A stretch of 16,050 nt of DNA from Pseudobdellovibrionaceae bacterium (GTDB taxonomy: Bacteria; Bdellovibrionota; Bdellovibrionia; Bdellovibrionales; Bdellovibrionaceae): the NCBI GenBank assembly GCA_039810425.1, contig JBDHWW010000060.1, forward strand, positions 1-16,050. The letters are read 5' to 3'. The position numbers were made by a program, and so were the translations under genes. Positions 1 through 16,050 of the stretch are shown piece after piece (within the stretch, counting starts at the first letter, position 1; every line of letters begins with the position of its first letter). The notes under the pieces were generated by a model, which worked only from the letters and a program-made list of their open reading frames with translations, was not told where the DNA came from and ran no database searches.

Positions 1-20
1 TTCAAAACCGCTCCCAGCAC

Positions 21-890: not shown

Positions 891-897
891 CTCTTAC

Positions 898-925
898 CCA
901 TCGGTGCGACTTTATTCGAACTGAA
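898..925 (-). promoter_or_regulatory. Putative sigma28 (FliA)-like promoter for the 21..890 gene
   Basis: The minus strand reads TTCAG-N15-ACCGATGG just upstream of the RBS. Compare the sigma28 consensus TAAAG-N14-GCCGATAA. Confidence 0.4.
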
Positions 926-1003
926 GAGCAGTGTGGCAGCTTCCTGGACTTTCGGCTTAAGCTTGCGAAGATAAAAGGTCTAGTTCTGGACGCACTTACC
1001 TAA

Positions 1004-1037
1004 ATATAGATCTATATAATTGTAGAGGTGCCGATAA
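1004..1037 (+). promoter_or_regulatory. Promoter region: 14-bp palindrome, TATAAT and an exact sigma28 -10 element
   Basis: ATATAGATCTATAT at 1004-1017 is a perfect palindrome. TATAAT is at 1015-1020 and GCCGATAA at 1030-1037, 33 bp before ATG 1071. Confidence 0.5.
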
Positions 1038-1070
1038 AAAAGGGCAAAGTTGTTTTGTGGAAAGGACCGT

Positions 1071-2903
1071 ATGGGGAGTAGTCCGTCACTCAATACGCGG
1101 AATCAAGAACCTGCAAAGTTGCCTCAGCGTCTAGCGCTGATCATGGCTATTATAGCATTCGCGCTTTTCGGTGGCGGCTACTATTTGAACCAACGCTTTC
1201 TTCTAGAAGAAGCAAACACATTCGTGACCCGGCATCCAGTGCCTGGACAAATAGTTTGGGTTTCAGGCCAAGAACTTTTCCGCTTCGAGTGGACTGGCTA
1301 CGCCGTTGAAGGCGATCTTTTAGAGGTTGCCCGTGATCCAGAGTTCCGCGACTTGGTTATGGAAACCCCCGCACCGCGTTCGCCGTTGCCGACGGATAAA
1401 TTGCCAGGCGAAGGGGACTACTACTATCGGATTGTCCGCAGGTCTGAAGATCAAGCCCTCGAGATTTTAAAACCAGTTCATTTTGCTCTGGTCGCAAAGA
1501 CGGCACCCGAAATAATTTATCCGTTTGGCAATATGAACACCAAAGAAGACAAAGCAATACGCTTTTATTGGCAGGCTAAACATGGCGTTACCAAGTATCG
1601 ATTCCAAATGGCTTTTGATAAGTCATTTGAACAAATAATGAGTGACTTTGTGGTCCATGAGACACAAACGACGCCTCAAAACATCCCTGTGGGCGATTTT
1701 TATTGGCGGGTGCGCGCTGAAAACGACGAAAAAACCTTTACTCAGTGGACAGAGCCGCGTCGTTTAACGGTGGAAAGAGCAGAAAACTTAGCGTCAAATG
1801 CGCTGCCTTCAAGTCCACCTTCAGCGGAGTTGGAAAAATCTGAGAAGCCAGAGTTGAAGGCTCTGCAAGTGCCATCTATTGGTAAACCCAATCAAAACCT
1901 GCTTCTGCGTTTTAAAAAGGGTGGTAAGAGGGGGCTGGCATCAGATAGCAACTCTTTGAGCAATCCGCCGTCTTTAGAGTGGGGCCAGGTTGAGGGTGCC
2001 CAAGCCTACGAAGTACAGGTTTCAAACAAAGCAGACTTTTCAAAGATAGAGTGGAGCCGTAAACTTGCTACAAACCAAGCGACTTGGGATGCCGCAAGAC
2101 CGGGGCGTGGTTATTGGCTTGTGCGCGCAATTGGCGTGGAATCGGTAAAGAGCGAGTATTCAGCGGCAGGGACTTTAGAGATGAGAGTGCCGGCTCCAAC
2201 TCTTAAAAAGAAGATGACTCATCAGGTGAAAACAAAAACGCGCGCAGAATATGCGGCGGCGACCTCAGTACCCGTCACTTGGGATCGAGTTCCGGGCGCG
2301 ATCGCCTACAAAGTTCTTGTTGCTGAAAATAAAAACTTTTCTCCGAGTAAAATCGATATGAAGGTGGACCGTAACTCGGCAAAGGTGCCTTTGGTTGAGG
2401 GTGGCCAATACTACGTGAAAGTCGCTGCCGTCTGAAGTGACGGAGAACAAGTCAGCGAGTTTTCTAAAGCCTCGACTCTGAAATTTAGCAAGCGAGCACC
2501 GGCCGCTGCGATGTCAACATCAAAGTCCTCGCAATCGGCTTCAGTGACAAGGAAGCCGAAGCCGACTCCGGAAGCGCGTGTTGTGGAAGCTCTGCCGGCC
2601 TCGAAGAACGATTTTCCGGCGCCTCAGCCAAAGCTGCCGCCAAACGGGGTGTCGTTGGTTTCACTTAACGGAACCCAGGATCCGGTCGTATTTAAGTGGG
2701 GCGTGATTGAAACAGCCGAAACCTATCGTCTTGAAATTGCCGGGGATGAGGGCTTTAAAGAGATCGTCTATACGACCAGCGTTCGTGAAAATCAGCTGGT
2801 GGTCACGACCCTTCTTCCGAAGGGAAGAAACTACTGGCGTGTCCGTGCGGAAAAGGGAACCAGTAAATCCGCCTGGTCCCCTGTGTTCACAATCGAAAAA
2901 TAA
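1071..2903 (+). pseudogene. Membrane-anchored protein with five FN3/Ig-like repeats, interrupted by one in-frame TGA at 2433-2435 (joins ORFs 1050..2435 and 2511..2903)
   Basis: Both ORFs are in the same frame, and the 75 bp between them read SDGEQVSEFSKASTLKFSKRAPAAA with no further stop. There is an N-terminal TM (LALIMAIIAFALFGGGYYL). The pattern W...Y-x-[LVF]-[EQ]...F...Y-[YW]-x-V-x-A recurs five times. It could be a nonsense allele, a sequencing error or readthrough. The start is uncertain (TTG 1050 or ATG 1071). Confidence 0.8.
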
Positions 2904-2940
2904 AATTAGTTAGCCTTTAAGAAGTGAAAACGCCTTTGCA

Positions 2941-4317
2941 TTAGTACAGTTCGTGGGACAGTGGCCTTCGCGGAGCCCGGAAGTAGGTGCGCGGAGAAAG
3001 CTCCAGCATATCCGAAATCTTCGTCATGTAGACACAGGCATAACGATCGAGCTGGTATGCGAAATAGCTCTCTTCATTGCCGGCCCTCATCAACTGGCCC
3101 CAATGATCGTTGTAGAGCGCCTGCTGCTTTTTGATGTGCTGGCTAATCTGCGCATCGATTTCCGAAATCGTTTTTTGCAAACCTTCGATCGCTGTTTCCT
3201 TCACATCCGCATGTTTTTCGATTTTCTTTGTCATCATCTCCGTGAGGTCATCTTCGAGGGGCTCTTTCTTGCGCATCAGGGCTTCGATTTCCTGATTCGT
3301 CGGTTCGGCCTCTTTGTTGTTGGCGATTTCTTCAGCCAACTCTTCGATCACCATCGCGGTTCTCCAGTTGCAGTCCTTTTTCAAACGAAGGATGTCACCA
3401 TAGATATGATCACCGATGTAAAGAATGTCATCACCGGCAAGACCGAGGTCTTCAGTGAATTTCTTCGCATTACCGCCTTGGTAGATGCCCGGACCGAATT
3501 TATTGTTCAGGTTCGTCATCGTACCGTCGGCCGGATTGACCACGAGGAATTTTTGATCTTCGTAGAAGAATTTTGGTTTTGAAGCCAAAGTCACTACTAC
3601 TTCAAAAAGATCATGCCAAGTCTTGCCGTCTTTCATGAACGGATTAATAGCATAATCCAAAAGTAGTTTTGAGTAATGGAAGTCGGAGTTCGTCAAAACG
3701 AAAATCTTCTTTCCATGCTTCAAAAACTTTTCAAGACCGCGCACCACGGACTCATCTTTGATGATGTAGTGGGCAAGATTCTTTTTAACTTCGTCTTTTA
3801 AGCTGCCGTCACGGTGAGCTTCATCCAAAGCATCTAAAACGTCATCGGCAATCTGAGCGTACTCAGGATAGGTGTTGGCCTTATCGTTATCTTTCAGATC
3901 CACAATCTGGGCGAACAAAACGGCGAGCGAAATAGAGAATGAGGTATCAATCGCCATGTAGTTAGGGTTTGATAAATCAATGTACGTGCTTTTGTAGAGC
4001 TTCTGATGAATTTTGAAATCCAGCGGCTTCATGCCATGATAGCTCGCCCGAATCGCGGTGTAGCGGTTCAATTTAAGCAAATTGCCTTTTTGGCGGTCAA
4101 TGACCAGGCCGCGAATCGCGAACTTGTAGTCGAAGAGAAGCTTGCGCAAAGCCTCAGGATAGCTCTTCCCGCGGATGAGCTTGTCGATCATAGTTGTGTG
4201 AGAAAGTCTTTCGAAGTTTTCACTGTTGTAGCGAACCAGCGTGTGGTCCATATCGAATCCGATGTAACGGATTCTTTTGAGGTTGAGCGTTCGGTTTACG
4301 TAGACTTTCCCAGTCAT
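2941..4317 (-). CDS. HAD-superfamily (subfamily IG) cytosolic IMP/GMP-type 5'-nucleotidase (cN-II-like)
   Basis: Motif I GFDMDHTL, motif II LTNS, motif III KPKFF, motif IV YIGDHIYGDI. Also has WRTAMVIEEL, a coiled-coil insertion and C-terminal WGQLMRAG...RYACVY...LSHE. Confidence 0.93.
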   Translation of the reverse strand: MTGKVYVNRTLNLKRIRYIGFDMDHTLVRYNSENFERLSHTTMIDKLIRGKSYPEALRKLLFDYKFAIRGLVIDRQKGNLLKLNRYTAIRASYHGMKPLDFKIHQKLYKSTYIDLSNPNYMAIDTSFSISLAVLFAQIVDLKDNDKANTYPEYAQIADDVLDALDEAHRDGSLKDEVKKNLAHYIIKDESVVRGLEKFLKHGKKIFVLTNSDFHYSKLLLDYAINPFMKDGKTWHDLFEVVVTLASKPKFFYEDQKFLVVNPADGTMTNLNNKFGPGIYQGGNAKKFTEDLGLAGDDILYIGDHIYGDILRLKKDCNWRTAMVIEELAEEIANNKEAEPTNQEIEALMRKKEPLEDDLTEMMTKKIEKHADVKETAIEGLQKTISEIDAQISQHIKKQQALYNDHWGQLMRAGNEESYFAYQLDRYACVYMTKISDMLELSPRTYFRAPRRPLSHELY

Positions 4318-4346
4318 AGAAGAAAAAATCCTTTTCTTGTGCGAAA

Positions 4347-4718
4347 TTATTTTTTGGTAGGCAGTTGCAACTCATTCCAGAGGAGCATACCACCTTGGAG
4401 ATTGAACACACTTTGGAAGCCATTCATCAAAGCAAAAGCGGTGGCGCGGGCAGAGCGACCCCCGCTGCGGCAGACAAACACGACCGTTTTGTCTTTTGGA
4501 ACTTTATCGAGTTTATCCGGCAAGGTGTCGAGGACCATCAGTTCTGAGTTGGCGATATGGCCGAGTTCACCCGTGTATTCATCAAGCTGGCGGACATCAA
4601 TTAGTGTTACTTCATTTACTTTATCTTTCAGCTCCTGGGGGCCGATATCAAACACACCTTCATAATGTGGGTTTTTAGTTTTCGAAGTGAATTGAATGTA
4701 TTTCGTTCCAGGATTCAT
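4347..4718 (-). CDS. Rhodanese-like domain protein (sulfurtransferase)
   Basis: LIDVRQLDEY...GHI, active-site loop CRSGGRS, and NLQGGMLLW. ATG 4718 has GAGG 5 nt upstream, so it is preferred over 4784, which overlaps the divergent promoter. The stop lies 29 bp from the nucleotidase start, so the two are likely co-transcribed. Confidence 0.9.
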   Translation of the reverse strand: MNPGTKYIQFTSKTKNPHYEGVFDIGPQELKDKVNEVTLIDVRQLDEYTGELGHIANSELMVLDTLPDKLDKVPKDKTVVFVCRSGGRSARATAFALMNGFQSVFNLQGGMLLWNELQLPTKK

Positions 4719-4741
4719 TACGGCCTCTAGCTCCCGCGTTA

Positions 4742-4784
4742 TAGTCAAGAGAGCCATCTTATCGTAGTATGACAGGCCTAGCAA
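4742..4784. promoter_or_regulatory. Overlapping divergent sigma70-like promoters (rhodanese/nucleotidase versus helicase)
   Basis: Plus strand: TAGTCA(4742-4747)-N17-TAGTAT(4765-4770). Minus strand: TTGCTA(4784-4779)-N17-TAAGAT(4761-4756). Confidence 0.4.
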
Positions 4785-4792
4785 GGAAAGTC

Positions 4793-6019
4793 ATGGATAT
4801 CGCCCTCTCATCAGAACAAGAACACGCTCTAGAAATTCTCCGCTCCGGGGAGAACGTTTTCCTTACTGGCGGCGCCGGAAGCGGTAAAAGCTATTTGATT
4901 CGCCATTTTATGGACGAGCTCGATCTAAAACAGACCCCTGTTTTAGCCTCCACAGGCGCTGCTGCAGTGCTTTTAGGGGGACGAACCTTTCACAGTTTTT
5001 TTGGCCTAGGCATCATGGAGGGCGGTACCGACGCCACTTATGAGCGCTGTTGCAAAGACCATCGTCTTTTAAATCGACTTAAAAAAGTTGAGGGTGTAGT
5101 CATCGACGAAATTTCGATGATTCCAGGCGCTGCGTTGATGATTGCCGAAGCACTGGCGCAAAAAGCGCGAGATTCAAAACTGCCTTGGGGCGGAATGCGG
5201 GTCATTAGTGTCGGCGATTTCGCGCAGCTTCCGCCGGTGACCCGCGCGGGGCCACGCGACTGGGCCTTTTTGAATGAAGTCTGGCAGCGCAGTGGTTTTC
5301 AAATTTGCCAGCTTTCGCACAACCAACGTGTGCAAGATAATCATTTTCTGGACGTGCTTGCCGACGTTCGTTATGGCAAAGTGACCCAAAGGGTTTTTGA
5401 TTTTTTATCTGAGCATGTCCAACCCCATGATGAAGAAGCGTCAGGCACGCGTCTTTTTGGTCGTCGCGATATGTCCGAGAACTTTAATAAGAAAAAACTT
5501 TCTGAGATTAACGAAGTCGAAGTCACGATTGATGCGATTTATATTGGTTCAGAAAAGCACATCGGGACCCTCATCAAGGTGGCGCCGGTTCCGCAAAAGC
5601 TTACTTTAAAAATCGGCTGCAAAGTTATTTTCTTACAAAACGATCCGCAAAAACGTTGGATCAATGGTACGCGGGGGACCGTGACAAAAATCGAAGTCGA
5701 TAAAATCACCGTCAAAAAAGAACCGGGACGCGAAGTCAGCGTTGATAAGTCTTCCTTCAGCCTGTTGGACGCTGAAGGGAATGTGACAGCGACCGCGATT
5801 CAATTCCCCTTAGCGCTGGCTTATGCGACAACGATTCATAAAAGTCAGGGGGCGACACTGGATGAGCTATGGTGTGACCTTCGGTCTTTATGGGAGCCAG
5901 GCCAAGCTTATGTAGCTTTGAGCCGCCTAAAAACCTCAGAGGGCTTGAAGCTGGTAGGTTGGAATCCACGATCAATCATCGTAGACCCCAAGGTTTTAGA
6001 GTTCTATCAGGGGATTTAA
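4793..6019 (+). CDS. Pif1-family (SF1B) 5'-3' DNA helicase
   Basis: Walker A GGAGSGKS, ASTGAAA..LGGRTFHSFFG, Walker B IDEISM, PWGGMRVISVGDFAQLPPV, QFPLALAYATTIHKSQGATL and GQAYVALSR. ATG 4793 follows AAGGAAAG (alternative start 4769). Confidence 0.93.
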   Translation: MDIALSSEQEHALEILRSGENVFLTGGAGSGKSYLIRHFMDELDLKQTPVLASTGAAAVLLGGRTFHSFFGLGIMEGGTDATYERCCKDHRLLNRLKKVEGVVIDEISMIPGAALMIAEALAQKARDSKLPWGGMRVISVGDFAQLPPVTRAGPRDWAFLNEVWQRSGFQICQLSHNQRVQDNHFLDVLADVRYGKVTQRVFDFLSEHVQPHDEEASGTRLFGRRDMSENFNKKKLSEINEVEVTIDAIYIGSEKHIGTLIKVAPVPQKLTLKIGCKVIFLQNDPQKRWINGTRGTVTKIEVDKITVKKEPGREVSVDKSSFSLLDAEGNVTATAIQFPLALAYATTIHKSQGATLDELWCDLRSLWEPGQAYVALSRLKTSEGLKLVGWNPRSIIVDPKVLEFYQGI

Positions 6020-6039
6020 GGATTTTTAGCGTTCGGAGG

Positions 6040-6122
6040 GCAAAAATTCCGTAGGAGGTTTTGCGGCTGATCGGGGTCTCCCCCGCCAGAAAAAGTCTCC
6101 TGCCTCAGTCTGGATTTTTCTG
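6040..6122. other. Cluster of three inverted repeats (structured intergenic region, REP-like or terminator-like)
   Basis: GCAAAAATTCC-GTA-GGAGGTTTTGC (6040-6064); CGGGG-TCTC-CCCCG (6072-6085); CAGAAAAA (6087-6094) pairing with TTTTTCTG (6115-6122). Confidence 0.4.
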
Positions 6123-6151
6123 AATATTAAAATAAAAAACGGAAAGAAGAC

Positions 6152-6181
6152 TTCACGTTCGTGTACTTATTTGCCTATAAT
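6152..6181 (+). promoter_or_regulatory. sigma70-like promoter for the M23 peptidase
   Basis: TTCACG(6152-6157)-N18-TATAAT(6176-6181), with an A-rich tract upstream. Confidence 0.55.
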
Positions 6182-6187
6182 GAACCG

Positions 6188-7489
6188 GTGACTACAAAGA
6201 ATGTTTATTTGATGACCGCGATCGTGGTGTGTGGGCTTTGTTTGGGTTGGGGAGGATCTTTTCTTTTCCAATTTAATGACGATGCAATTAAAAACCCTGT
6301 GGCTGCGGCTCCGCCGCCGCCAAATATTTTACCTTCTCTCGAAGAGCTTTATCCTTACGAGATTCCGCCGAAGTCCACCTTGGGGAGCATCCTGGGTGAA
6401 ATGGATATTAGTTCTCAAGTGATTCATCAAATCGTTCAAGCGGCAAAACCTGTCAGTGATCTCGGTCGCATTAAGCCGGGCACACGCTTTCAGTTGTTCT
6501 ATAAAAACCCAAAAGATGAAACTTCCGAAGTGACGGGAATCAAGTTCCATTTCTCGCCGACGGAAATGTTGGAAGTGCATAAATTGAACGAGCAATGGAC
6601 TGCACGGCGGATCACTGAAAAAGTTGAAATCAAAGTCGTCACGTTCGCGGGTGTGGTGAAAAGTTCTTTATGGGGCTCTGCGAGCGAAGCAAAGATGGAT
6701 CCAAACTTGATTGCGGACCTTGCCGAGGTGTTTGCCTGGCAGATGGACTTTTCGCGCGAAGTCCAAGCCGATGATCGTTGGAGACTTTCAGTTGAGCAGA
6801 AGTTCGTCAAAGGCCAACCTGTGGGCTGGGGCTCTATCCTGGCAGCTGAATACGAAAATGAAAATCAAAAACTCGTAGGTATTCTTTATCACACCAGCGA
6901 TACGGAGTCTGGATACTATTCTCCAGATGGTCAGAGCCTGCGGCGCATGTTCTTAAAGAGCCCGATCCGTTACGGTCGCATCTCATCCAGATTCAGCACG
7001 AAACGCTTTCATCCGATTTTGCAATACAATCGCCCGCACCTGGGTGTTGATTTCGCCGCACCTGTCGGAACTCCAGTCCGGGCCGTGGGGGATGGAGTGA
7101 TTGCCGAAGCCGCCGTTCGCGGTGGCGCAGGAAAAATGATCCGTATCCGCCATAATTCAGAATACGCAACCGCCTACAAGCACCTCAGCGGTTTTGCGAA
7201 AGGCATTCACAGTGGCACTCGTGTTCAGCAAGGTCAGATCATTGGATATTCCGGCAACACGGGCCTTTCAACGGGGCCGCATTTGCACTTTGAATTTTTC
7301 CAAGGGGGCCGTTACATTGATCCGCTGGGCAAGAAGTTTCCATCTGCGGAACCAATTTCGCAAGATCACCTCGCGCAGTTTAAGACGGAAGTGACAACCA
7401 TGATGGCGTCACTCCCAAATTGGGACGGCGATAAGTTTGGCCGTAGCGGCGGTCTTCCGCCGCTGCAAACCCAGCCGTCAGGAATGTAA
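6188..7489 (+). CDS. M23 family zinc metalloendopeptidase (MepM/Csd3-like peptidoglycan endopeptidase) with N-terminal membrane anchor
   Basis: Zn ligands HLGVD (HxxxD) and TGPHLHFE (HxH). RISSRF..RFHPIL, YKHLS and FAWQMDFSR match the Csd3/MepM-type middle domain. The N-terminus is hydrophobic. The start is uncertain (6161, 6188 or 6212). Confidence 0.93.
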   Translation: MTTKNVYLMTAIVVCGLCLGWGGSFLFQFNDDAIKNPVAAAPPPPNILPSLEELYPYEIPPKSTLGSILGEMDISSQVIHQIVQAAKPVSDLGRIKPGTRFQLFYKNPKDETSEVTGIKFHFSPTEMLEVHKLNEQWTARRITEKVEIKVVTFAGVVKSSLWGSASEAKMDPNLIADLAEVFAWQMDFSREVQADDRWRLSVEQKFVKGQPVGWGSILAAEYENENQKLVGILYHTSDTESGYYSPDGQSLRRMFLKSPIRYGRISSRFSTKRFHPILQYNRPHLGVDFAAPVGTPVRAVGDGVIAEAAVRGGAGKMIRIRHNSEYATAYKHLSGFAKGIHSGTRVQQGQIIGYSGNTGLSTGPHLHFEFFQGGRYIDPLGKKFPSAEPISQDHLAQFKTEVTTMMASLPNWDGDKFGRSGGLPPLQTQPSGM

Positions 7490-7492
7490 GTC

Positions 7493-7855
7493 TTATTCGA
7501 GAGTTTGTGGTTCAACGGACTGTTGTTCCACAGGCTGTTGGTTATGCCAGTCACGATGGTGGCTTCTCACGCAACGATAGCGGACAACCACGAACCGGCC
7601 GATACGAATACGATCGGCTTCCAAGCGATAGCCGCGTGGACAGTTGCGACGAGAGCGCCTCATCATATCCACTTCGCCCTGGGTAGAGTTCTCAGTAATC
7701 ACCTTCGCGTCGACATCTTGTAAGTCTTTCGAAGTGATTCCGAGATCCGTTAATACCTTTGGCAGCGGAGCTTCTTCCGCATTCATTTCCGCGGCCAACA
7801 CTGGCGTAGAGCCAACGATCAATGATGCTAAAACTAGGGTTACAAATTTTCTCAT
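7493..7855 (-). CDS. Small secreted hypothetical protein (signal peptide, acidic region, Arg-rich two-Cys segment)
   Basis: Strong RBS AGGAGG before the ATG. Sec signal MRKFVTLVLASLIVGSTPVLA. The gene fills the gap between the M23 peptidase and ribD without overlap. Confidence 0.8.
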   Translation of the reverse strand: MRKFVTLVLASLIVGSTPVLAAEMNAEEAPLPKVLTDLGITSKDLQDVDAKVITENSTQGEVDMMRRSRRNCPRGYRLEADRIRIGRFVVVRYRCVRSHHRDWHNQQPVEQQSVEPQTLE

Positions 7856-7921
7856 GGATTCCTCCTGTTAGGGTCCAGGGGAGATTATGAGAACAGGCCG
7901 TGAACGCCTTATGATAAAGCC

Positions 7922-7950
7922 TTGAAAAGGCCGCGAAGTGCGAGTAGTTT
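7922..7950 (+). promoter_or_regulatory. sigma70-like promoter for ribD
   Basis: TTGAAA(7922-7927)-N17-TAGTTT(7945-7950), followed by 7 nt and then ATG 7958. Confidence 0.5.
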
Positions 7951-7957
7951 TGCGGCC

Positions 7958-9076
7958 ATGAAACTGTTCCCAGGGCAAGCCATGAAAATGGCGATACAAG
8001 AAGCGTACAAAGGAGCGACACAGGTCAGCCCGAATCCTCTTGTCGGAGCGGTGGTTTTGAGTGCTGAAGGAAACATATTGGCAAGTGGTCACCATGAATT
8101 TTATGGCGGGCCACACGCGGAAGTGAACGCTCTGAAAAATCTTTCCGTCGAACAGCTTCGCGGTGCCACGGTTTATGTCACGCTCGAGCCTTGTGCGCAT
8201 GAAGGAAAAACCCCTTCCTGCGCGAAGATGATGGCCGGCCTTCCAATCAAGAAAGTTGTATTTGGTCTTGTTGATCCAAACCCGCTTGTTGCCGGTCAGG
8301 GGGCTGCCATCTTGCAGGCGGCCGGAATCCAGACCGAAGTTTTCTCAGAAACACATCCTGCATTTAGAAATGAACTTGAAGAGGTCTGCGAAGCTTTTCT
8401 TTGGAACTTTCGTGAGAAAAAAGTTTTTGTTTCTCTGAAGATCGCCCAGAGCCTTGACGGGCAAGTGGGACTTAAAACCGGCGAAAGCAGGTGGATCACA
8501 AATGAAAAATCGCGGGAATATGTTCACTATCTCCGGGCCTGCCATGATGCGACTCTGGTCGGACGGGGAACGGTTCAACAAGACAACCCGTCTTTAAATA
8601 TTCGGCATCCTGAAATTCAAAAAAATAACCGGGTGGTGGTGATTGATCCCAGCGCGACTTTGCTCCAAGAAGCGTCGCAATTGCAGATTACGCGTTTGCA
8701 TAAACCAGAAAATATTTTTTGGTGTGTGAGTGTCGTGAAAAACTCCTCTGGGGACCTGCCTTTTGCCAAGATCGTGAGGGTTCGGGAAAATACCGATGGT
8801 ACATTGAACCTCGAAGATCTTTTGCAGAAACTTTGGAGTGCTGGAATTCGCTCAGTGATGGTTGAAGGTGGACCGCAGACGGCGGCGAACTTTTTGAAAG
8901 CCGGTTTAGTGAATAGACTTTATATTTTCACCGCTCCGGTCGTGGTGGGGGCCGAAGGAGGCCGCTCGTGGACTGAGGGAATCAGCATTAGCGAAATGCG
9001 TGAGCGTCTTCAGGTGAAAAACCCCCAAACACGGTCATTTGGGTCTGACATGCTGACGACTGGACGTTTGACCTGA
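7958..9076 (+). CDS. ribD: Bifunctional diaminohydroxyphosphoribosylaminopyrimidine deaminase / 5-amino-6-(5-phosphoribosylamino)uracil reductase
   Basis: Deaminase motifs SPNPLVGAV, HAE and YVTLEPCAHEGKTPSC. Reductase motifs KIAQSLDG, SRWIT, LVGRGTVQQDNPSLNIR and VMVEGG. The start is 7958 or 7982 rather than TTG 7922. Confidence 0.96.
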   Translation: MKLFPGQAMKMAIQEAYKGATQVSPNPLVGAVVLSAEGNILASGHHEFYGGPHAEVNALKNLSVEQLRGATVYVTLEPCAHEGKTPSCAKMMAGLPIKKVVFGLVDPNPLVAGQGAAILQAAGIQTEVFSETHPAFRNELEEVCEAFLWNFREKKVFVSLKIAQSLDGQVGLKTGESRWITNEKSREYVHYLRACHDATLVGRGTVQQDNPSLNIRHPEIQKNNRVVVIDPSATLLQEASQLQITRLHKPENIFWCVSVVKNSSGDLPFAKIVRVRENTDGTLNLEDLLQKLWSAGIRSVMVEGGPQTAANFLKAGLVNRLYIFTAPVVVGAEGGRSWTEGISISEMRERLQVKNPQTRSFGSDMLTTGRLT

Positions 9077-9229
9077 ATTTTTTACAGGACGCAAGTCCAT
9101 ACGCTGAAGGTCATTTGTCGGAAAGCAGCGATCTTGTTTAACCCGAGAACCTCTATATTCGTTTAAAACCGGACAATGCATTGCATTCATTTCTGGCCCT
9201 TACCTGCCGTAGGCGCCGGGAAGCGACTC

Positions 9230-9238
9230 TGTTATAAT
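9230..9238 (+). promoter_or_regulatory. Extended -10 promoter TGnTATAAT
   Basis: TGTTATAAT is an exact match, 48 bp upstream of ATG 9287. Confidence 0.6.
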
Positions 9239-9244
9239 GACTGG

Positions 9245-9266
9245 AAGGTGAGCATTCACCTTTTTT
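9245..9266 (+). terminator. Hairpin plus U-tract (intrinsic-terminator-like)
   Basis: AAGGTGA-GCAT-TCACCTT is a perfect 7-bp stem followed by TTTT, then AGGAG. Confidence 0.45.
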
Positions 9267-9286
9267 AGGAGTTTCTAAGTAGAATT

Positions 9287-9682
9287 ATGAGCGACGACGG
9301 CAGTAGATCGATAGTTAAAAATTTAAAGAATGAATGGGCTCTCTTCTGGGAGAGTATCGCGGGCGAAGATCAGGAAGACAGCGCCTTTGAAACAGGGAAG
9401 TTACAAGTTCTGAGCCTTGACCAACTTCACGAAATCATTAAAGCCCTTAGCCATGACCGCAGGCGTTTGAACCAAAAGTTAGAGTCTTTGAATAAGGAAC
9501 TCGAACTCAATGGGGCCAAACTCGAAAGCATTCGTCTGGTCGGTGGGCAAGACGGCGAGACCCTCAAACGTATTAACGAGTTAAGCGATATCGGCCAGGT
9601 CCTGAGTGAACAACTCAGCAAACTCGACGAAAAGATTAAATGGACTCGACTTCGCCAGGAAGAATTTCTCGCAAGCCAATAA
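9287..9682 (+). CDS. Hypothetical coiled-coil protein
   Basis: 131 aa with heptad Leu repeats (LSHDRRRLNQKLESLNKELELN; LSDIGQVLSEQLSKLDEKI). No TM or signal peptide. AGGAG lies upstream. Confidence 0.8.
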   Translation: MSDDGSRSIVKNLKNEWALFWESIAGEDQEDSAFETGKLQVLSLDQLHEIIKALSHDRRRLNQKLESLNKELELNGAKLESIRLVGGQDGETLKRINELSDIGQVLSEQLSKLDEKIKWTRLRQEEFLASQ

Positions 9683-9714
9683 ATCCAGCTAGAAAAATTT
9701 ATCCCTCACGCTCC

Positions 9715-9750
9715 ACACACAAGACTGGACGATGCTCCAGGCTTGTGTGT
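9715..9750. other. Long stem-loop upstream of the motor operon
   Basis: ACACACAAG-A-CTGGA-CGATGC-TCCAG-G-CTTGTGTGT gives 14 paired positions with one mismatch. There is no strong U-tract. Confidence 0.6.
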
Positions 9751-9800
9751 TCCAGGCCAGCGGGTGGTGCGCAAAATTATTATTTTTTGTCCAGCCAGAC

Positions 9801-9828
9801 TCCAGTTCCCATCCGGGAAAGCCGTTAG
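9801..9828 (+). promoter_or_regulatory. Putative sigma28 (FliA)-like promoter of the motor operon
   Basis: TCCAG-N15-GCCGTTAG has the same geometry as the motif at 898-925 and lies 52 bp upstream of ATG 9881. Confidence 0.35.
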
Positions 9829-9880
9829 ACATGATAGCGGTCATTGTGACTGCGTTTAGCAATTAATGGAGTTGGCTGAG

Positions 9881-11611
9881 ATGTCATTCAATTATCATAA
9901 AAATAAAGAAGGACATTCTAACGACAGTTTTTGGACGTCGTACTCGGATCTATTTTTGGGTCTTAGTACGATCTTCTTGCTGTTGTATGTAATCTCAAGT
10001 CTTCGTACCAGCACTGATGCCATCCGTTCGCAGGTTGAGAGCCAGAAACTTTCCATGGAAGTGGAAGAGTTGAAAGGTCAGCTCAAAATGTATGAGAACG
10101 TAAAAAACGAGTACATGAACAATGCGGCGAAAGACGAAGTTCAAGAGTACCAAGAGTTGATGGATAAACTCACGCTGCTGCAAGAGGACGCGAAAACCGA
10201 GAAGGACAAACTCATCGAGCAAGCTTTGGCTAACGATGGAAAGGTCAAAGCTCTTAATAAGTACCAGCAGATGGTACGTAACGTGATGAATGCCAATAAG
10301 ATGGCGAAGTCTAAGATCGTGAATCGTGATGACTTGATTAAAGATCAGGATGAAGAGATCGAAGTTAAAAAGGGCGAAATTACGGACCTGCAAAAAGACG
10401 TTCAGCAAAAGAAAGCACTCATTGCTGATGGCGAAAGAAAGATCGACGAAGCGAACAACTACTTGAAGTCTAAGCAAGCGGAGCTGAAGCAGGCTCTTCG
10501 GACAAACAAGATCACTCGTGAGCGTTACAATGCGCGTATAGCCCAGGTTAAAGCGGAAAATGACAGACGCGTGAATCAGTTGGCTTTGGCGAATGAAAAA
10601 TATAACGAGCAATTGGAAGCAGTTGCTGGTCAGTTGAAGCAAGCAAACGCACAAATCGCTCAAACGAACGAGCAGTTGAATCAGACAAACACCGCGTTGA
10701 CGAACACCCAAGGACAATTGGCCGCGACCCAGGGTTTGTTGGATAAAAAAGAAGGCGAGATCAAAGGTCTCTACGGTTCATTGCAAAAGCAAGCTGCTGA
10801 TGGCCAAGCTAAAATGGCGCAAATGCAGGCGGGTTACGCAGCGGAGAAAGCCCGTGAAAAAGCGGCCTTTGATGCTGAGTTAGGCCGTAATAAAGCGATG
10901 GGCGCAGCGGAACGTTCTCGCCGTGAGGGCGAATTCAAAGCGGCAATGGCGGCCAAAGACAAAGAGTACGGTGGCAAGATGGCGGCTTTGGGTGGTCAAC
11001 TAAAAAACACCGAAGGTCAGTTGGCAAAAGCTCGGGCCGAGCTTGAGGCGCGCCGGGCTGTTGCGGATGAGGTGAAAAAAGGTTTTGCGAAGGCGGGAAT
11101 CAAGGCGGATATCGACATGGAGACGGGCGATGTTGTTCTTGATTTCGGCCAAGCCTATTTTGACAGCGACTCGGATCATTTGAAGAGCGAGATGAAGAAC
11201 GTGCTCGAGAAGGCGATGCCAATCTATTCGAAGTCATTGTTCGGAAATCCAAAGCTTTCAGACAAGATCACCGCGGTTGAGATCGTGGGCTTCGCTTCTC
11301 CTACATACAAGGGGCGGTTCATCGATCCTAAGAGCCAGAAGCCTGAGGATAAACAGGCGATTAAGTACAACATGGATTTGAGTTATCGCCGTGCGAACGC
11401 GATTTTCGGATACGTTCTCGATGATAACAACGTTCGTTTTGAGCATCAAAAGGAACTTGTGGGATTAATGAAGGTTTCCGGTCGTTCCTTCTTGGAAGTG
11501 ATGAACGTGAATACCAGAAATGTCGCCAATGCCAATGAGTTCTGTAGGCAGAACGATTGCAAAAAGGCGCAAAGAGTTATCATCAGATTTAATGTGGATC
11601 AAAAGAAATAA
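9881..11611 (+). CDS. ZorB/MotB-like stator subunit: TM with conserved Asp, long coiled coil, OmpA-like peptidoglycan-binding domain
   Basis: FWTSYSDLFLGLSTIFLLLYV matches the MotB/ZorB W-x-S-x-S-D-L helix, with Asp at 9947-9949. About 350 aa of Q/E/K/A-rich heptads follow. The C-terminus has YFDSDSDHLK...VEIVGFAS...NMDLSYRRANAI...QRVIIRF. GGAG lies 9 nt before ATG 9881. Confidence 0.88.
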   Translation: MSFNYHKNKEGHSNDSFWTSYSDLFLGLSTIFLLLYVISSLRTSTDAIRSQVESQKLSMEVEELKGQLKMYENVKNEYMNNAAKDEVQEYQELMDKLTLLQEDAKTEKDKLIEQALANDGKVKALNKYQQMVRNVMNANKMAKSKIVNRDDLIKDQDEEIEVKKGEITDLQKDVQQKKALIADGERKIDEANNYLKSKQAELKQALRTNKITRERYNARIAQVKAENDRRVNQLALANEKYNEQLEAVAGQLKQANAQIAQTNEQLNQTNTALTNTQGQLAATQGLLDKKEGEIKGLYGSLQKQAADGQAKMAQMQAGYAAEKAREKAAFDAELGRNKAMGAAERSRREGEFKAAMAAKDKEYGGKMAALGGQLKNTEGQLAKARAELEARRAVADEVKKGFAKAGIKADIDMETGDVVLDFGQAYFDSDSDHLKSEMKNVLEKAMPIYSKSLFGNPKLSDKITAVEIVGFASPTYKGRFIDPKSQKPEDKQAIKYNMDLSYRRANAIFGYVLDDNNVRFEHQKELVGLMKVSGRSFLEVMNVNTRNVANANEFCRQNDCKKAQRVIIRFNVDQKK

Positions 11612-11620
11612 AAGAGGTGT

Positions 11621-12556
11621 GTGGTGTTAGACGGAAAAACTATCGCAGAATATTTTATATTATGTCTGCCATATGTAATGGCGAGCATCTTCGTGATCGG
11701 CATATTCTTCCGCGCAATGGTCTACTATACGGTTCGCCGTCATGAGTGGTTCGCGCGTGAGTTTGAAAAACGCGTGAATCGTTTCATGGAGACTGAAACT
11801 CCGGGAAAAGCACACGATGTTTCATTTTACGTTCTTTCTAAAAGAATGCTCGAACGCACTTACTACGAAGTATTCGAGATTCGGGATCGCATGAAGCGCA
11901 GAAAGCCAGATGCCGTTATGAGCTGGAGCGATCGTTTGTTCCTTATCAAACAAGGTTGCGCTTGGCTGGTAAAAGATATCTTGAAACAAGTGAAGTTCTT
12001 GAAGTGGACTGAAGAGACGCCAAAACTATTGAACATTACCAAAGCGACTTTCCACCACAACCCTTGCTTCAACCGTGTGTTTGGCGTCATTCCAATGCAA
12101 GGTTTGAACGATATTATTTCTATTTTGCCGGGTCTTTTCGTTGTTGCCGGTATCTTGGGTACTTTCATCGGTATCGCGACAGGCCTTGGTGACCTGGGAG
12201 GTATGAATCTTCAGGACTTGGAAGCAACTAAGAACATCATGGATAAATTCCTCCATGAGATCTCTTTTGCGATGAAGTCTTCTATCGTGGGTATCATATT
12301 TTCGCTTGCGAGTCATATTCTGAACACGATGATGTCACCGGAAAGAGCTTACGTTTCTATGATTGATCGTTTTGAAAGCTCGATGGACCTTCTATGGTAC
12401 CGCAGCGACAACAATACTTATCCTTCTGATGAGCGTCCATTCGACGAACACAAGGATGCAGTAGAAGCTCTTGCTGAGGATGCCTTGAATAAAGAAATCA
12501 GCAAAGGTCAAAGAACGCGTGAGATGCTTGAGGTGCGTAAGCCAAAAGCTTCGTAA
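11621..12556 (+). CDS. ZorA/MotA/TolQ/ExbB-family ion channel subunit (3 TM)
   Basis: TM1 near the N-terminus, then a cytoplasmic domain, LPGLFVVAGILGTFIGIATGL, and ISFAMKSSIVGIIFSL. It starts 9 bp after the MotB-like gene, with RBS AGAGG. Confidence 0.88.
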   Translation: MVLDGKTIAEYFILCLPYVMASIFVIGIFFRAMVYYTVRRHEWFAREFEKRVNRFMETETPGKAHDVSFYVLSKRMLERTYYEVFEIRDRMKRRKPDAVMSWSDRLFLIKQGCAWLVKDILKQVKFLKWTEETPKLLNITKATFHHNPCFNRVFGVIPMQGLNDIISILPGLFVVAGILGTFIGIATGLGDLGGMNLQDLEATKNIMDKFLHEISFAMKSSIVGIIFSLASHILNTMMSPERAYVSMIDRFESSMDLLWYRSDNNTYPSDERPFDEHKDAVEALAEDALNKEISKGQRTREMLEVRKPKAS

Positions 12557-12572
12557 TTGGGAAAGTTAAGAG

Positions 12573-14993
12573 ATGTTAAAGACGTACTGCAAATATACAG
12601 TCACGGTCCATAGAAAGGACCAGGTAATGACCAAGGTCGTGAACGAAGACTCGTTCACGATTGGTCGTTCTATGGACTGTACGATTGCTTTACAAGAAGA
12701 CAGTATCAGCCGTGTTCACATTGTGGTGAACCGCCGCCAGGAACAGATCTGGATCGAGGACAAGGGGTCTTCGAATGGTACTTTCGTCAATAACGTCCGT
12801 ATCGCCCAAAACAGTCTTGTGAATGTTGTGGCGAATGATCGTATCCGCGTCGGTAAATCCGACTACGTTTTAAGTATCTCACTTGAAATTGAAGAGCGCG
12901 ATGATAATGCTGCATCGGCCATTGCCGCTGAGGCAACGGACCTTTTGAAAGCTCCAGTAGCCCCGCAACAAAAAGCGCAGCAACCATCGTCGGCGTTTAA
13001 TCCCGCGCCCTTTCAAACGATTTTGATGCCAAAAGATAAAACGGCGGCGCCACAAACGCAGCGCCCCTCTCAGGCAAATAGTCAAAACAACGCGGATCAG
13101 AATCCGCCGGCAGCGTCGAAAGAGGAAATGCGCCGCGAGATTCGCTCAACCTCAGCGCGTGAAGAGAATCCGGCAAATAACTACAGCAGTTCTTCGGCGC
13201 AATTTGAAGGGGAAAGAATCCTTCATGATGCTCATAAGAAAGCCGCGCAAATAATCTATGACGGTGAAGTGCAGGCCGAAAAACGCGCGCAAAACATCTA
13301 TATGGAAGCTCGCGAGCGCCAATCGCAAGCGGATTCTTACTATCAGAAAAAGGTCTCGGAGGCGCACAGACACGCTGATGAAATCATTGTGAATTTTCAG
13401 AAGCAAGGTGAGGAACTACTGGTTCAAGCTCGCCAGTTTGCTCAGGAAATGCGCGATGAAGTTGATGTGTTTTCGCGGAAGCTTCGTGATGACGCCCATG
13501 TCGATGCCGAGGGCATCACTGACGAAGCCCGTAAAGAAGCGGAGCTTATTAAGCACGATGCTTATGAAAAAGCTCTAACGAAGGCCGAAATTGAAGCGGA
13601 GGATCTCGTTGTCAGTGCAAAGGCCGAATCCCAGGATATTTTGACGTCCGCCCAGCAGCAGGCCGAAGAAATGCTCGCGAAAGTTCGTAGTGAGATGGAA
13701 AACGAGCTTAAAGACTTGAAAGAGGCCCTTGAAGATAAGCAGAAACAAATCCAGCTCTTCAAGAAAGAAATGGAAGAACTGCAAGTGAAAGCTCTCGGCG
13801 ACCAGGAGGAAGCGGAAATCAAGCTTTCTGAAGTCAAAGAAGAGCATGAGAAATTCAAAGGTGAAGTCGAGTCCATGCAGAGAACACTGGGGGCTTCCCG
13901 TATTGAAGAGGAAGGTCTTCAAGATAAGATTCGTGATCAGAAAAAGGCGGCAGCGGATCTGGAGCATCAAATCGGTGTTCTTTATGGGGACAGCAAGACT
14001 CTGGAAAGAAAGAACAAAGAATTACAGGAGTTGATCGGCCACAAAACACTCGACATCCAAGCGGCCGAAGACCAAAAGCGTATCATGGAAAATGAGCTGG
14101 TGGTTCATAAGTCCCAGATCAAAGATCGCCTGGAGCGCGACAAAACCCAGTTGATTAAGGAATCCGAACAAAGCCTGCACGATGCGCAGCTTGAAATGAG
14201 CAAGCGTTTGCAGAAGCTTGAGCAAGAGATGATCGAAGAAATCATGGGCCGTAAAGAGTCCATCGTGAAAGACATTATCATTGTGATCGAAACCCGTATT
14301 GCACGGGTTCTTGAGCCGGCGAAATGGGACCAAGTTTCAAGCCAAATCTTCGACGGGATCTCTGAGACTCTCGAAGGGAAAGCTGTGTCCTTTACCGAGA
14401 GCACGAAGCAGCCGAAGCAATCGGCTTCTTTGGCGAGAAAGAAGAAGAAGGAAAACATCCGCTGGATGGCTGTGGGCATTACCGCAGGTATCATGGTTTC
14501 TTTCCTTGGTTTACAAACGTATAACCGCATGACAAAGGATAAAAATCCTATGCGCACGTTGGCGGCAGAGGAAAGCCGCCGCCGTCAAGAGGATCTTGAG
14601 CGGCGTAAGTTTAACCCGGCTCAGGTTCGTGATGTGAAAGACACGTATACCGACGCGGTTATATATACATCGGGCTACGTGGCGGCTTATCAGGATCCGG
14701 AGTATCAGCAAAAACTCTACAAAGCGGCTTCTACATACCTTTTGAAAACATGGCGCGTGGATGAGGACAAATCGATTCAGGTTCTGTCCATGTCGAGTGC
14801 TTTGATCAAAGAGCTGAGTGACAAGAAACAAAATATCCATCCAGACTATGTCAAGGATGGCGTCCTGAAGATGCGTGGTCTTGAGAAGGAAAGCCTTGAG
14901 CGTATGAAAGCCGTACTGGGTTCTGAGGTTCGCCTCGAGTCTTACCGCCGTTTTGAGAAGCGTTTCTTCGAAACAGAAATCCTCAAGAAATAG
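12573..14993 (+). CDS. FHA domain - low-complexity linker - long coiled coil - single TM - periplasmic domain protein
   Basis: FHA motifs FTIGRS, SISRVH and DKGSSNGTFVN. A Pro/Gln/Ala/Asn linker precedes DivIVA/ATP-synthase-b-like repeats (EARKEAELIKHDA, SAKAESQDILTSAQQQAEEML). Basic RKKKKENIR precedes TM WMAVGITAGIMVSFLGL (14463-14513). It starts 16 bp after the MotA-like gene. Confidence 0.9.
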   Translation: MLKTYCKYTVTVHRKDQVMTKVVNEDSFTIGRSMDCTIALQEDSISRVHIVVNRRQEQIWIEDKGSSNGTFVNNVRIAQNSLVNVVANDRIRVGKSDYVLSISLEIEERDDNAASAIAAEATDLLKAPVAPQQKAQQPSSAFNPAPFQTILMPKDKTAAPQTQRPSQANSQNNADQNPPAASKEEMRREIRSTSAREENPANNYSSSSAQFEGERILHDAHKKAAQIIYDGEVQAEKRAQNIYMEARERQSQADSYYQKKVSEAHRHADEIIVNFQKQGEELLVQARQFAQEMRDEVDVFSRKLRDDAHVDAEGITDEARKEAELIKHDAYEKALTKAEIEAEDLVVSAKAESQDILTSAQQQAEEMLAKVRSEMENELKDLKEALEDKQKQIQLFKKEMEELQVKALGDQEEAEIKLSEVKEEHEKFKGEVESMQRTLGASRIEEEGLQDKIRDQKKAAADLEHQIGVLYGDSKTLERKNKELQELIGHKTLDIQAAEDQKRIMENELVVHKSQIKDRLERDKTQLIKESEQSLHDAQLEMSKRLQKLEQEMIEEIMGRKESIVKDIIIVIETRIARVLEPAKWDQVSSQIFDGISETLEGKAVSFTESTKQPKQSASLARKKKKENIRWMAVGITAGIMVSFLGLQTYNRMTKDKNPMRTLAAEESRRRQEDLERRKFNPAQVRDVKDTYTDAVIYTSGYVAAYQDPEYQQKLYKAASTYLLKTWRVDEDKSIQVLSMSSALIKELSDKKQNIHPDYVKDGVLKMRGLEKESLERMKAVLGSEVRLESYRRFEKRFFETEILKK

Positions 14994-15137
14994 TTCACAT
15001 CGTCCAATCTTTGAATAGGCCTGTCCTTCTTCAAGGGCTACTCAAACTGCGCGGGTAGTTTCGAAGTCGTTGCGACGGAGTGCCTCTAAAAAATTAATTG
15101 AAGTGATCTTATCCATTTTGTTTGGCACAAATATCCA

Positions 15138-15848
15138 ATGAGGTTTTTAATTTCAATCCTTGTGTGCTTTGCGCCGCTCTTCGTTTTGGCGAAGGAGAAG
15201 ATCACGGTCGTCACTCAGTCCATCCCGCTGATGGTGGAGAGTGAGAATAAAGGTGTCTTTATCGACATCCTTCGCAAGTTCTTTGAGAAAACCGGTGTCG
15301 AAGTTGAAATCATGTTGCTTCCGCGCAATCGGGCTTTTGATTACTTTCGTAATAAAAAAGCTCTCATTTTGCTCCCCGGCGTGGGGCCAGAGCCGCTCGG
15401 GGATGCCTATTTGAAGACCGTGAACTTCTATGAAAAACGTGACTACCTCTTTTATCGTAAAGGCGATCATTACTCGTCAATACAATCCCTGAAAGGAAAA
15501 ACCGTGGGGATTACAAACGGATACCCGTATGCCCCGGAAATTCTTGAAACCGAAGGTGTGCATTTCGAGGCCGCACCGAGTGATGAAATGAATTTCAAGA
15601 AGCTCAGAAAGAATCGCATAGATGCCTTTCTGGCGGAAGAGTTCTCGGGGTTAACGGCTCTTAAGGAAAGCGGTGCTGAAGGAATCGTTTACGACAAAGA
15701 AAAGCCACTTTCGAAACTGCCGGTCTACATAGCGGTCCGTGACAGTGAAGAAGGCAGGAAATGGCATCGTTTTCTGAATGAGAAGCTTAAGGAAATGAAT
15801 AAGAATGCGCCGTTGATGGACCTCGTGCGCGCCCGGTTTAGCCCCTAA
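15138..15848 (+). CDS. Periplasmic substrate-binding protein, family 3 (amino-acid-type) fold
   Basis: Signal peptide MRFLISILVCFAPLFVLA. Motifs GVFIDIL...LPRNRA, SLKGKTVGITNGYPY and KKLRKNRIDAF. No adjacent permease or ATPase is visible. Confidence 0.85.
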   Translation: MRFLISILVCFAPLFVLAKEKITVVTQSIPLMVESENKGVFIDILRKFFEKTGVEVEIMLLPRNRAFDYFRNKKALILLPGVGPEPLGDAYLKTVNFYEKRDYLFYRKGDHYSSIQSLKGKTVGITNGYPYAPEILETEGVHFEAAPSDEMNFKKLRKNRIDAFLAEEFSGLTALKESGAEGIVYDKEKPLSKLPVYIAVRDSEEGRKWHRFLNEKLKEMNKNAPLMDLVRARFSP

Positions 15849-15973
15849 AAACTGGCCTGCAAGCTTCTGCCAGCAACATTTAAAAACTGATCCCTTACGC
15901 TGTTGATATGAAGTCCCAAGCACGGCGGATCTGCCTCCATGCGATGGGCAGGCGCTCGGGCTTAGGCGCTAAT

Positions 15974-16048
15974 CTATGTCTGCTTGATTAAAACCAAGTT
16001 ATGATAAAGCACATAAAGTGCAATGTGCAGATCAAGCCTCTCAGGCTT
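15974..16048 (-). CDS. Partial CDS entering from the right edge; C-terminus resembles IS1-like DDE transposases
   Basis: The frame is open from the window edge and reads KPERLDLHIALYVLYHNLVLIKQT*, recalling the K-x-E...H...Y-x-x-x-[YH]-N terminal helix of IS1-type transposases. Only 24 codons are visible. Confidence 0.35.
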   Translation of the reverse strand, partial: KPERLDLHIALYVLYHNLVLIKQT

Positions 16049-16050
16049 CT

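Follow-up and report, generated by a model that had tools for sequence, protein, structure and literature searches.

A ZorAB-type motor variant with a long periplasmic stalk, conserved in Bdellovibrionales and apparently not described before

Introduction

Three adjacent genes of a Pseudobdellovibrionaceae bacterium encode a real and conserved variant of ZorAB-type motors that has apparently not been described. They lie on contig JBDHWW010000060.1 of assembly GCA_039810425.1, of which the whole stretch of 16,050 nucleotides (positions 1 to 16,050, hereafter the window) was analysed. Gene B (9881..11611), called from the open reading frame (ORF), profile matches and alignments, encodes a ZorB-like subunit of 576 amino acids (aa), gene A (11621..12556, with a GTG start and an alternative start at 11624) a ZorA-like subunit of 311 aa, and gene C (12573..14993) an FHA coiled-coil membrane protein of 806 aa. 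All three are located on the forward strand, with gaps of 9 bp between B and A and of 16 bp between A and C. The start of gene B is placed at the ATG at 9881, and not at the ORF-finder start at 9866, because the homologues begin with M-S-F-N-Y. A preliminary description of this DNA had reported the three co-oriented genes, both gaps and a transmembrane (TM) aspartate codon at 9947-9949, all of which are confirmed from the ORFs and the sequence, and had interpreted the trio as a Zorya-related, wall-anchored ion motor without effectors. That interpretation is partly supported, in that the relationship, the wall-binding domain and the lack of recognisable effectors hold, while the most unusual feature of the locus, a periplasmic coiled coil of ~350 residues in B, had been overlooked.

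Phage defence, flagellar rotation, outer-membrane transport and stabilisation, and gliding or secretion are the functions known for ion motors of the 5:2 type, a list that the family described here appears to extend by a further function and a further architecture. It thus bears on ZorAB-type motors outside immunity, as well as on the control of the envelope in the hunting cell. Furthermore, profile-based annotation may miscall such genes as Zorya, and the Bdellovibrio bacteriovorus genes Bd1167-1169 are mis-annotated as ‘microtubule binding’, ‘hypothetical’ and ‘large Ala/Glu-rich’, respectively.

The ZorB-Like Subunit and Its Stalk

A check against ZorA and ZorB profiles, including those of PADLOC, had been proposed for the pair and turned out positive for both subunits. 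B matches the PADLOC profiles ZorB1 (1e-28) and ZorB2 (2e-16), whereby both the TM and the C-terminal domain are covered, and the NCBIfam ZorB models at 2e-6 and 8e-6, which is far below the curated cut-offs. Hydropathy predicts a single TM each for B and C, and three for A. Alignment to the ZorB chains 8qyd_F and 8vvi_A identifies the TM aspartate of B (codon GAT, 9947..9949, forward strand) as the equivalent of D26 of Escherichia coli ZorB, the functional role of which has been reported (PMC11946911). This aspartate is invariant in all 57 orthologues aligned.

The TM is followed by a stalk of ~350 residues, mostly coiled coil (10004..11065, forward strand), that is delimited by the conservation profile and the heptad signal. 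The coil comes after the TM and would hence be periplasmic, by homology with ZorB. Its first ~110 residues are well conserved (0.66-0.78), with lower values in the middle part (0.34-0.5). If extended, with 0.15 nm per residue, the stalk would measure ~50 nm, compared with a distance of roughly 9 nm between membrane and wall in E. coli (PMC11946911). Being several times longer than this gap, it would have to be bent back on itself or run sideways. The C-terminal part of B is an OmpA-like domain (11066..11608, forward strand), defined by the PADLOC ZorB match and the alignment to 8vvi_A, with an invariant E-x-x-G-x-x-S, an invariant N-x-x-L-S-x-x-R and a pair of cysteines, and not in a periplasmic domain of the ExbD/TolR type; a weak match to MotB_plug falls below the cut-off. 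B proteins are 495-634 aa long, but reach up to 1758 aa in a sister clade, where the periplasmic coiled coil of the largest B (L132:8748-14024) exceeds 1000 residues by far.

The ZorA-Like Subunit and the Ion Site

A was initially taken for a MotA-type channel, but is rather of the ZorA type with three TMs. TM1 (residues 12-30) is followed by a cytoplasmic domain, TM2 (165-183), TM3 (216-234) and short C-terminal helices, and the protein stops ~75 residues past TM3, so that the long cytoplasmic coiled-coil tail of ZorA is not present. The best matches to ZorA TM profiles are at 1e-10 to 1e-11, far below the curated NCBIfam cut-offs, and Pfam gives no match to MotA/ExbB or to MotA_N. The median length of the orthologues is 310 aa (n=68). 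Among longer variants, the eight that were read have acidic or proline-rich low-complexity ends, no additional Pfam domain was found in the 22 scanned, and a hunt for longer fused forms retrieved only one ZorA-like protein of 766 aa with a weak match (4e-5). In the Protein Data Bank, the only motor proteins matched by the sequences of A and B are ZorA and ZorB chains. The AlphaFold model of A (predicted local distance difference test, pLDDT, 78) is most similar to ZorA 8qyh (Z 12.1, root-mean-square deviation, rmsd, 4.2, 202 residues aligned), followed by 8qyd (10.7), 8vvi and 8vvn (both 10.2), ExbB (9.9) and TolQ (9.4). The fold alone is modest evidence, because unrelated helical bundles rank between the motor proteins. 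In the Atlas, the neighbours of A are first Bdellovibrionota clusters and then ZorA-like clusters.

By alignment to ZorA structures, the ion site of A (12161..12283, forward strand) comprises T181 (12161-12163), S220 (12278-12280) and S221 (12281-12283). T181 and S221 are invariant (60/60) and correspond to T147 and S184 of ZorA, which were described as ion-site residues together with D26 of ZorB (PMC11946911). Position 220 is Ser or Thr in 52 of the 60 sequences and Ala in the remaining eight, and aligns with a Thr in the Na+-binding ZorA of Shewanella, with an Ala in that of Sulfuricurvum and with a Gly in that of E. coli. Proton-type motors were reported to have no additional polar residue (PMC11890865, where the residue is not numbered in the part used). 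The polar side chain that A carries in addition at position 220 therefore suggests that Na+ could be used. A lysine is found at this position in the bare B-A pairs of family f24 (L105, L134-L137) and in L133, and may mimic a bound cation or alter the ion use.

The kinship was also addressed by trees. The main tree, with 32 rows (five of them ZorA) and 110 columns around TM2-TM3, leaves many forks open, and a larger first tree lacked three rows (two of MotA, one of ZorA). In the main tree, a split at 98/95 sets the B-A family, together with ZorA and short orphan ZorA-like proteins, apart from MotA, TolQ, ExbB and AglR-type proteins, ZorA and the short orphans form a group of their own (97/85), and the three MotA-type rows group apart (99/95). 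As anticipated, A is thus located outside the clusters of flagellar MotA and TolQ/ExbB.

The FHA Partner

C is composed of a cytoplasmic FHA domain (residues 29-94, E 2e-16), a low-complexity linker, a hendecad coil (210-380) with a period of 11 residues (3.68), a heptad coil (380-560), a TM (629-647) and an all-helical periplasmic domain (~655-806). In the FHA domain G31, R32, S46, H49 and G69 are found in all of 52 sequences and N68 in 50 of them. The G-R, S-x-x-H and N-G residues are those by which FHA domains bind phosphothreonine. The proposed function as a reader of Ser/Thr phospho-signalling accordingly gains from the conservation of these residues, but loses in that the FHA protein is only one of several partners of the pair and absent from some loci. 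The TM carries a G-x-x-x-G motif, of which G635 is conserved in 47/52 sequences, and a basic run preceding it suggests that the FHA side is cytoplasmic. The genome encodes two Ser/Thr kinases that score over the cut-off, and further FHA proteins. In one of the distant loci (L107:10762-11811), a gene for a second FHA protein (349 aa) immediately precedes B in divergent orientation.

The periplasmic domain is modelled as all-helical with a pLDDT >90. The best fold match has a Z of 8.3 (rmsd 3.5, 117 residues aligned) and the second one of 7.5, values that common helical arrangements reach as well; no match at E<=0.001 was obtained with Foldseek, and no usable one in the Atlas. Profile searches for a TonB-C domain or a GltG tail in C were without match, whereas absence from the fold lists cannot exclude a family. 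A complex prediction with two A, two B (residues 8-150) and the C-terminal part of C scored 0.00, but the controls did not fold either, so that it carries no weight either way.

Distribution, Synteny and Partner Exchange

B is directly upstream of A in 68/68, and C directly downstream in 71/71, of those of the 73 close loci that have sufficient room on the contig. A was detected in 43/61 relatives with a single query (in one of these only as a weak ZorA-type match), in 78/111 genomes of the order and in 100/251 genomes of a sample of the phylum, five of which have weak matches only. The genome analysed here has one copy, as do most others, beside nine other genes of the MotA/ExbB family, which include MotAB, TolQRA and Agl/Exb-type motors. 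Four of ten genomes without a FliG match carry A (one of them a single complete contig), while FliG is present in 27 of the 33 A-less genomes, and GltG-type genes occur in 111/111 genomes, compared with 78 for A.

Both A and B are missing from four complete single-contig genomes; in a fifth one that was checked, B is located at the end of a contig. In genus g10 the operon has a fixed chromosomal site between an Rrf2 regulator and a gene for a methyl-accepting chemotaxis protein (MCP). These flanks are 6.7-7.7 kb apart in two carriers and only ~0.5 kb apart in two genomes with a clean loss, in which no replacement cassette is found. The median genome size is 2.9 Mb without and 3.4 Mb with A, although related genomes are not independent. 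In loci L021 and L043 the identity of A (85-87%) is similar to that of the housekeeping neighbours RibD (70%) and Pif1 (86-91%). No family member was found on plasmids or phages; apart from one annotated zorA, the search gave only a weak match to a phage.

More distant relatives were studied in 35 loci, which were hand-picked across the score range. B precedes A in all 35, but the third gene varies. The FHA gene, expected to be kept beside the pair, follows it in only 12 of these loci. Ten loci form the sister clade (97/100 in the larger tree), with B proteins of 522-1758 aa, and in nine of them the pair is followed by a protein of 146-160 aa that binds cyclic nucleotides (cyclic nucleoside monophosphates, cNMP). 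Neither C nor the cNMP gene is found beside 13 pairs, one of which has a receiver-domain gene instead. In six of six genomes with bare B-A pairs that were searched, C was not found elsewhere, and two positive controls were detected.

Promoter and Expression of the Orthologues

A consensus for FliA-dependent promoters of the attack phase, TTAAG-N16-CCGATA, has been published (PMC3627812), and a putative FliA (sigma-28)-type promoter, TCCAG-N16-CCGTTA, with three mismatches to it is predicted upstream of gene B (9801..9827, forward strand). Independently of the published expression data, CGATAA was seen upstream of many orthologues. From 65 upstream regions, 54 had 120 bases and a recognisable start, and 51 of these are non-redundant. 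The consensus is found with <=3 mismatches in 36 of the 51, compared with a mean of 7.25 and a maximum of 15 in doublet shuffles and with 52/421 (12%) of other ORFs; with <=2 mismatches it is found in 14, compared with 0.85 in shuffles and 15/421 of other ORFs. A sigma-70 scan of the forward strand upstream of the operon found nothing.

Protein P0088 (301 aa, accessions CAE79081.1 and AHZ86390.1) is 79% identical to A, and the two accessions are presumably those of B. bacteriovorus strains HD100 and 109J. Homologues of B bear the name ‘microtubule-binding protein’, as does Bd1167, Bd1168 has 906 bp (301 aa), and Bd1169 is the next gene; by name, length and order Bd1167-1169 can thus be mapped to B, A and C. 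Fenton 2010 and Butan 2011 are said to mention Bd1167, and perhaps to have inactivated it. In HD100, Bd1167-1169 share one start site and reach 932/1354/527 reads per kilobase per million in the attack phase, but only 35/23/14 in the growth phase, a difference of 26-55x (PMC3627812). In a transposon sequencing (Tn-seq) study of 109J, the three genes (EP01_RS15535/40/45) have fitness values W of 1.5-2.0 under each of the four prey conditions, as do most genes around them, while genes for predation drop to values <0.1; the library was host-independent (PMC6561027). As far as these sources go, Bd1167-1169 form one attack-phase operon that is dispensable for laboratory predation. A role in predation had been considered, but an essential one is contradicted by the Tn-seq values and by the loss from four complete genomes. 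Since the operon is present in B. bacteriovorus, highly expressed in the attack phase and non-essential, experimental tests are directly feasible. A description of the system was found neither in the literature searched, from which subscription papers are mostly missing, nor in the available part of a 2026 review (PMC13689555), and none of the unidentified attack-phase structures listed in the available part of bioRxiv 10.1101/2022.06.13.496000 could be assigned to the operon.

A Proposed Mechanism and Its Alternatives

The reading that we favour, at about even chances, is that of a signal-gated, wall-anchored, probably Na+-capable A5B2 motor that acts on the envelope and is not a defence system. 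A and B would form an ion-driven rotary unit of the ZorAB lineage in the inner membrane, with five A around two B, as in the homologous motors. Ions would pass the Asp of B and the Thr/Ser ring of A, and Na+ could be used. The stalk of B would anchor the unit to the cell wall and act as a tether or a lever, while the product of the third gene would read a signal and gate the motor. In the locus studied here this reader would be the phosphothreonine-binding FHA domain on a membrane-anchored coiled coil of ~55 nm, and in the sister clade the cyclic-nucleotide-binding protein would take its place. The unit would be produced while the attack-phase cell swims freely, and its most likely task would be mechanical work on the predator's own envelope, namely tensioning or repositioning of the inner membrane against the wall. 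Such a role would be accessory and not directed against phages; it would be useful in nature, although laboratory predation can do without it.

A bolder form of this proposal is possible rather than probable: the family could represent an ‘inside-out Zorya’, a separate class of 5:2 ion motor in which the rod sits on the periplasmic B and not on the cytoplasmic tail of A. The rod would then serve as a winch or lever of 50-200 nm on the wall, with interchangeable phosphothreonine, cyclic-nucleotide or receiver modules as switches, and this non-defence use of ZorAB, possibly close to the ancestral state of Zorya, would serve the hunting stage.

Several observations speak against the favoured reading. 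The mechanical output is a guess from the anatomy, and attack-phase expression, neutrality in the absence of phages and patchy loss fit a role in defence or sensing as well. A Z of 9-12, as obtained for A, can be reached by chance among helical bundles, with ExbB and TolQ close behind, and the B-A family forms one side of its branch in the main tree with only 62/85, although the larger tree agrees (90/88). C is no obligatory part of the system, because 13/35 distant pairs lack both an FHA and a cNMP partner, and a search of six such genomes detected C at no other site in any of them. The promoter of Bd1167-1169 in HD100 was scored ‘FliA site: no’ (PMC3627812), the change of these genes on microarrays was only 0.6-0.8-fold at 30 min of predation, and they change little in host-independent growth (PMC2797640). 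No experiment on any member of the family was found in the literature searched.

It is rather improbable that the system is a sensor of the envelope or of prey contact, in which engagement or strain of the stalk would start the motor and C, as the detached equivalent of the ZorA tail, would signal outward to phosphothreonine proteins. The data separate this sensor and the favoured motor poorly. A sensor would match the mode of action proposed for ZorAB (PMC11946911), the cytoplasmic coil of C (~350 residues) is comparable in scale to the 70-nm tail of ZorA, the Ser/Thr kinases and other FHA proteins of the genome could take part, and expression of the orthologues falls into the attack phase. 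By contrast, the partner in the sister clade is a stand-alone cNMP-binding protein of ~155 aa, without coil or TM, and resembles an input, the 13 distant pairs have neither kind of partner, and Tn-seq gave no defect in attachment or predation (PMC6561027).

A vertically inherited system against phages or competitors is unlikely. It would use a gated ZorAB-like channel or motor, for example for depolarising the membrane, with effectors that are encoded elsewhere or not needed. ZorAB are indeed the closest relatives, attack-phase cells would be the exposed stage, insertions cost nothing without phage, and the operon is lost in some complete genomes. Defence systems such as Pycsar likewise link domains that bind cNMP to effectors in the membrane. 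However, the family lacks the long ZorA tail, which was reported for all Zorya subtypes and is required for defence (PMC11946911). Moreover, PADLOC matched none of 16 neighbours from distant loci (0/16), and the EH-signature of ZorC is absent from the genome studied here and from two relatives, while two Zorya-bearing controls were positive; ZorD, ZorE, ZorF and ZorG were not searched genome-wide. The fixed position with clean deletion differs from cassette swapping, the conservation resembles that of housekeeping neighbours in L021 and L043, the plasmids and phages searched yielded no family member, and the phylum has genuine loci of the Zorya type (L124) apart from this family.

Very unlikely is a passive tether between membrane and wall or a cytoskeleton-like scaffold, vestigial or at most a simple ion channel without rotation. 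B and C consist mostly of coiled coil, and Bd1167 was termed a crescentin-like cytoskeletal protein (PMC2797640), but a passive structure would need neither the invariant Asp of B nor Thr181 and Ser221 of A, and the coil of B, following the TM, is placed in the periplasm by homology with ZorB. An accessory stator or energiser of the flagellum or the Agl-Glt gliding machinery deserves hardly any credence, since the FliA-type promoter, the MCP gene downstream in genus g10 and the FHA membrane protein beside the motor, as with GltG, are outweighed by the occurrence of A in FliG-less genomes and of FliG in most A-less ones, by the MotAB, TolQRA and Agl/Exb-type motors that the genome already has, by the ubiquity of GltG-type genes and by the trees, which set A apart.

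Neighbouring Genes and Other Loci

The GC content of the trio is level with that of the remainder of the window, and the named relatives are from Bdellovibrionales. The neighbours scanned comprise ribD, an M23 peptidase, a Pif1 helicase, a 5'-nucleotidase, a coiled-coil ORF of 131 aa and a solute-binding protein, and a flagellar, tol/pal, tonB or nuclease gene could not be recognised in this set, which agrees with the preliminary description, as does the order of B before A. The 131-aa ORF (9287-9682), located between ribD and gene B, has no family match; it was rejected together with ribD as a part of the operon, as they are linked to the trio in only 2/73 loci. At 1050-2903, adjacent ORFs of 461 and 130 aa with fibronectin-type-III-like repeats resemble one gene broken near 2435-2511, possibly by a frameshift or an assembly error.

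Other ZorAB-like loci were met in the survey. Canonical-order ZorA-ZorB genes with a long ZorA (L124:5852-9643, L125:4916-7634, L146:1-2715) are sporadic in the phylum and apart from the B-A family; an EH-signature ZorC follows L124, and one is also encoded nearby in the genome of L146. Orphan ZorAB of a second kind (L147:1294-2857, L148:756-2301, L150:1276-2808) consist of a short ZorA-like protein (282-287 aa, little tail) and a ZorB-like protein (225-231 aa) in the order A-B. These pairs adjoin housekeeping genes, with no effector within ~3.5 kb, and group with ZorA in both trees. Two further loci (L126:4333-5503, L127:4248-5410) encode an A of 207 aa with three TMs and a single-TM partner of 175-179 aa, that of L126 without Pfam match; L126, although labelled Tol/Exb, falls on the ZorA side of the 32-row tree, and may represent a third orphan motor type. 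In genus g64, A is located ~11 kb from fliG in 5/5 genomes, and in the sister genus g32 the distance is 60-110 kb.

Comparison with Known Motors

Among known systems, the flagellar stators MotAB/PomAB share with the family an Asp-containing TM of B and a wall-binding domain of the OmpA type, but A has three TMs, lacks MotA_N, is separate in the trees and occurs without FliG. A flagellar motor was rejected for the last reason, and since FliG is present in most A-less genomes. TolQRA, ExbBD-TonB and AglRQS-GltG resemble the family in the three-TM fold of A and in a third, single-pass membrane protein that is encoded alongside, which in the case of GltG also has an FHA domain. B of the family, however, ends in an OmpA-like and not in an ExbD-type domain, and the periplasmic domain of its C is all-helical. 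The parallel to AglRQS and GltG that had been drawn is weak, as no TonB-C-like tail was recognised in C and GltG-type genes are in 111/111 genomes but A in only 78, and a core gliding motor was rejected in view of the GltG-type tails in all 111 genomes. The closest likeness is to the ZorAB of Zorya (8QYD/8QYH, E. coli type I; 8VVN, Shewanella type I; 8VVI, Sulfuricurvum type II), which have the three-TM A with P-G...G-T-F-x-G and the Thr/Ser ring, as well as the W-x-S-x-x-D TM and the OmpA-like domain of B. Membership in Zorya was rejected, given the missing long tail of A, the reversed gene order and the lack of a recognised effector. Unlike Zorya, the family combines the order B-A and a tail-less A with a B stalk of ~350 residues and an FHA or cNMP partner, and it is found without ZorC/D/E neighbours, at a fixed chromosomal position and under attack-phase control.

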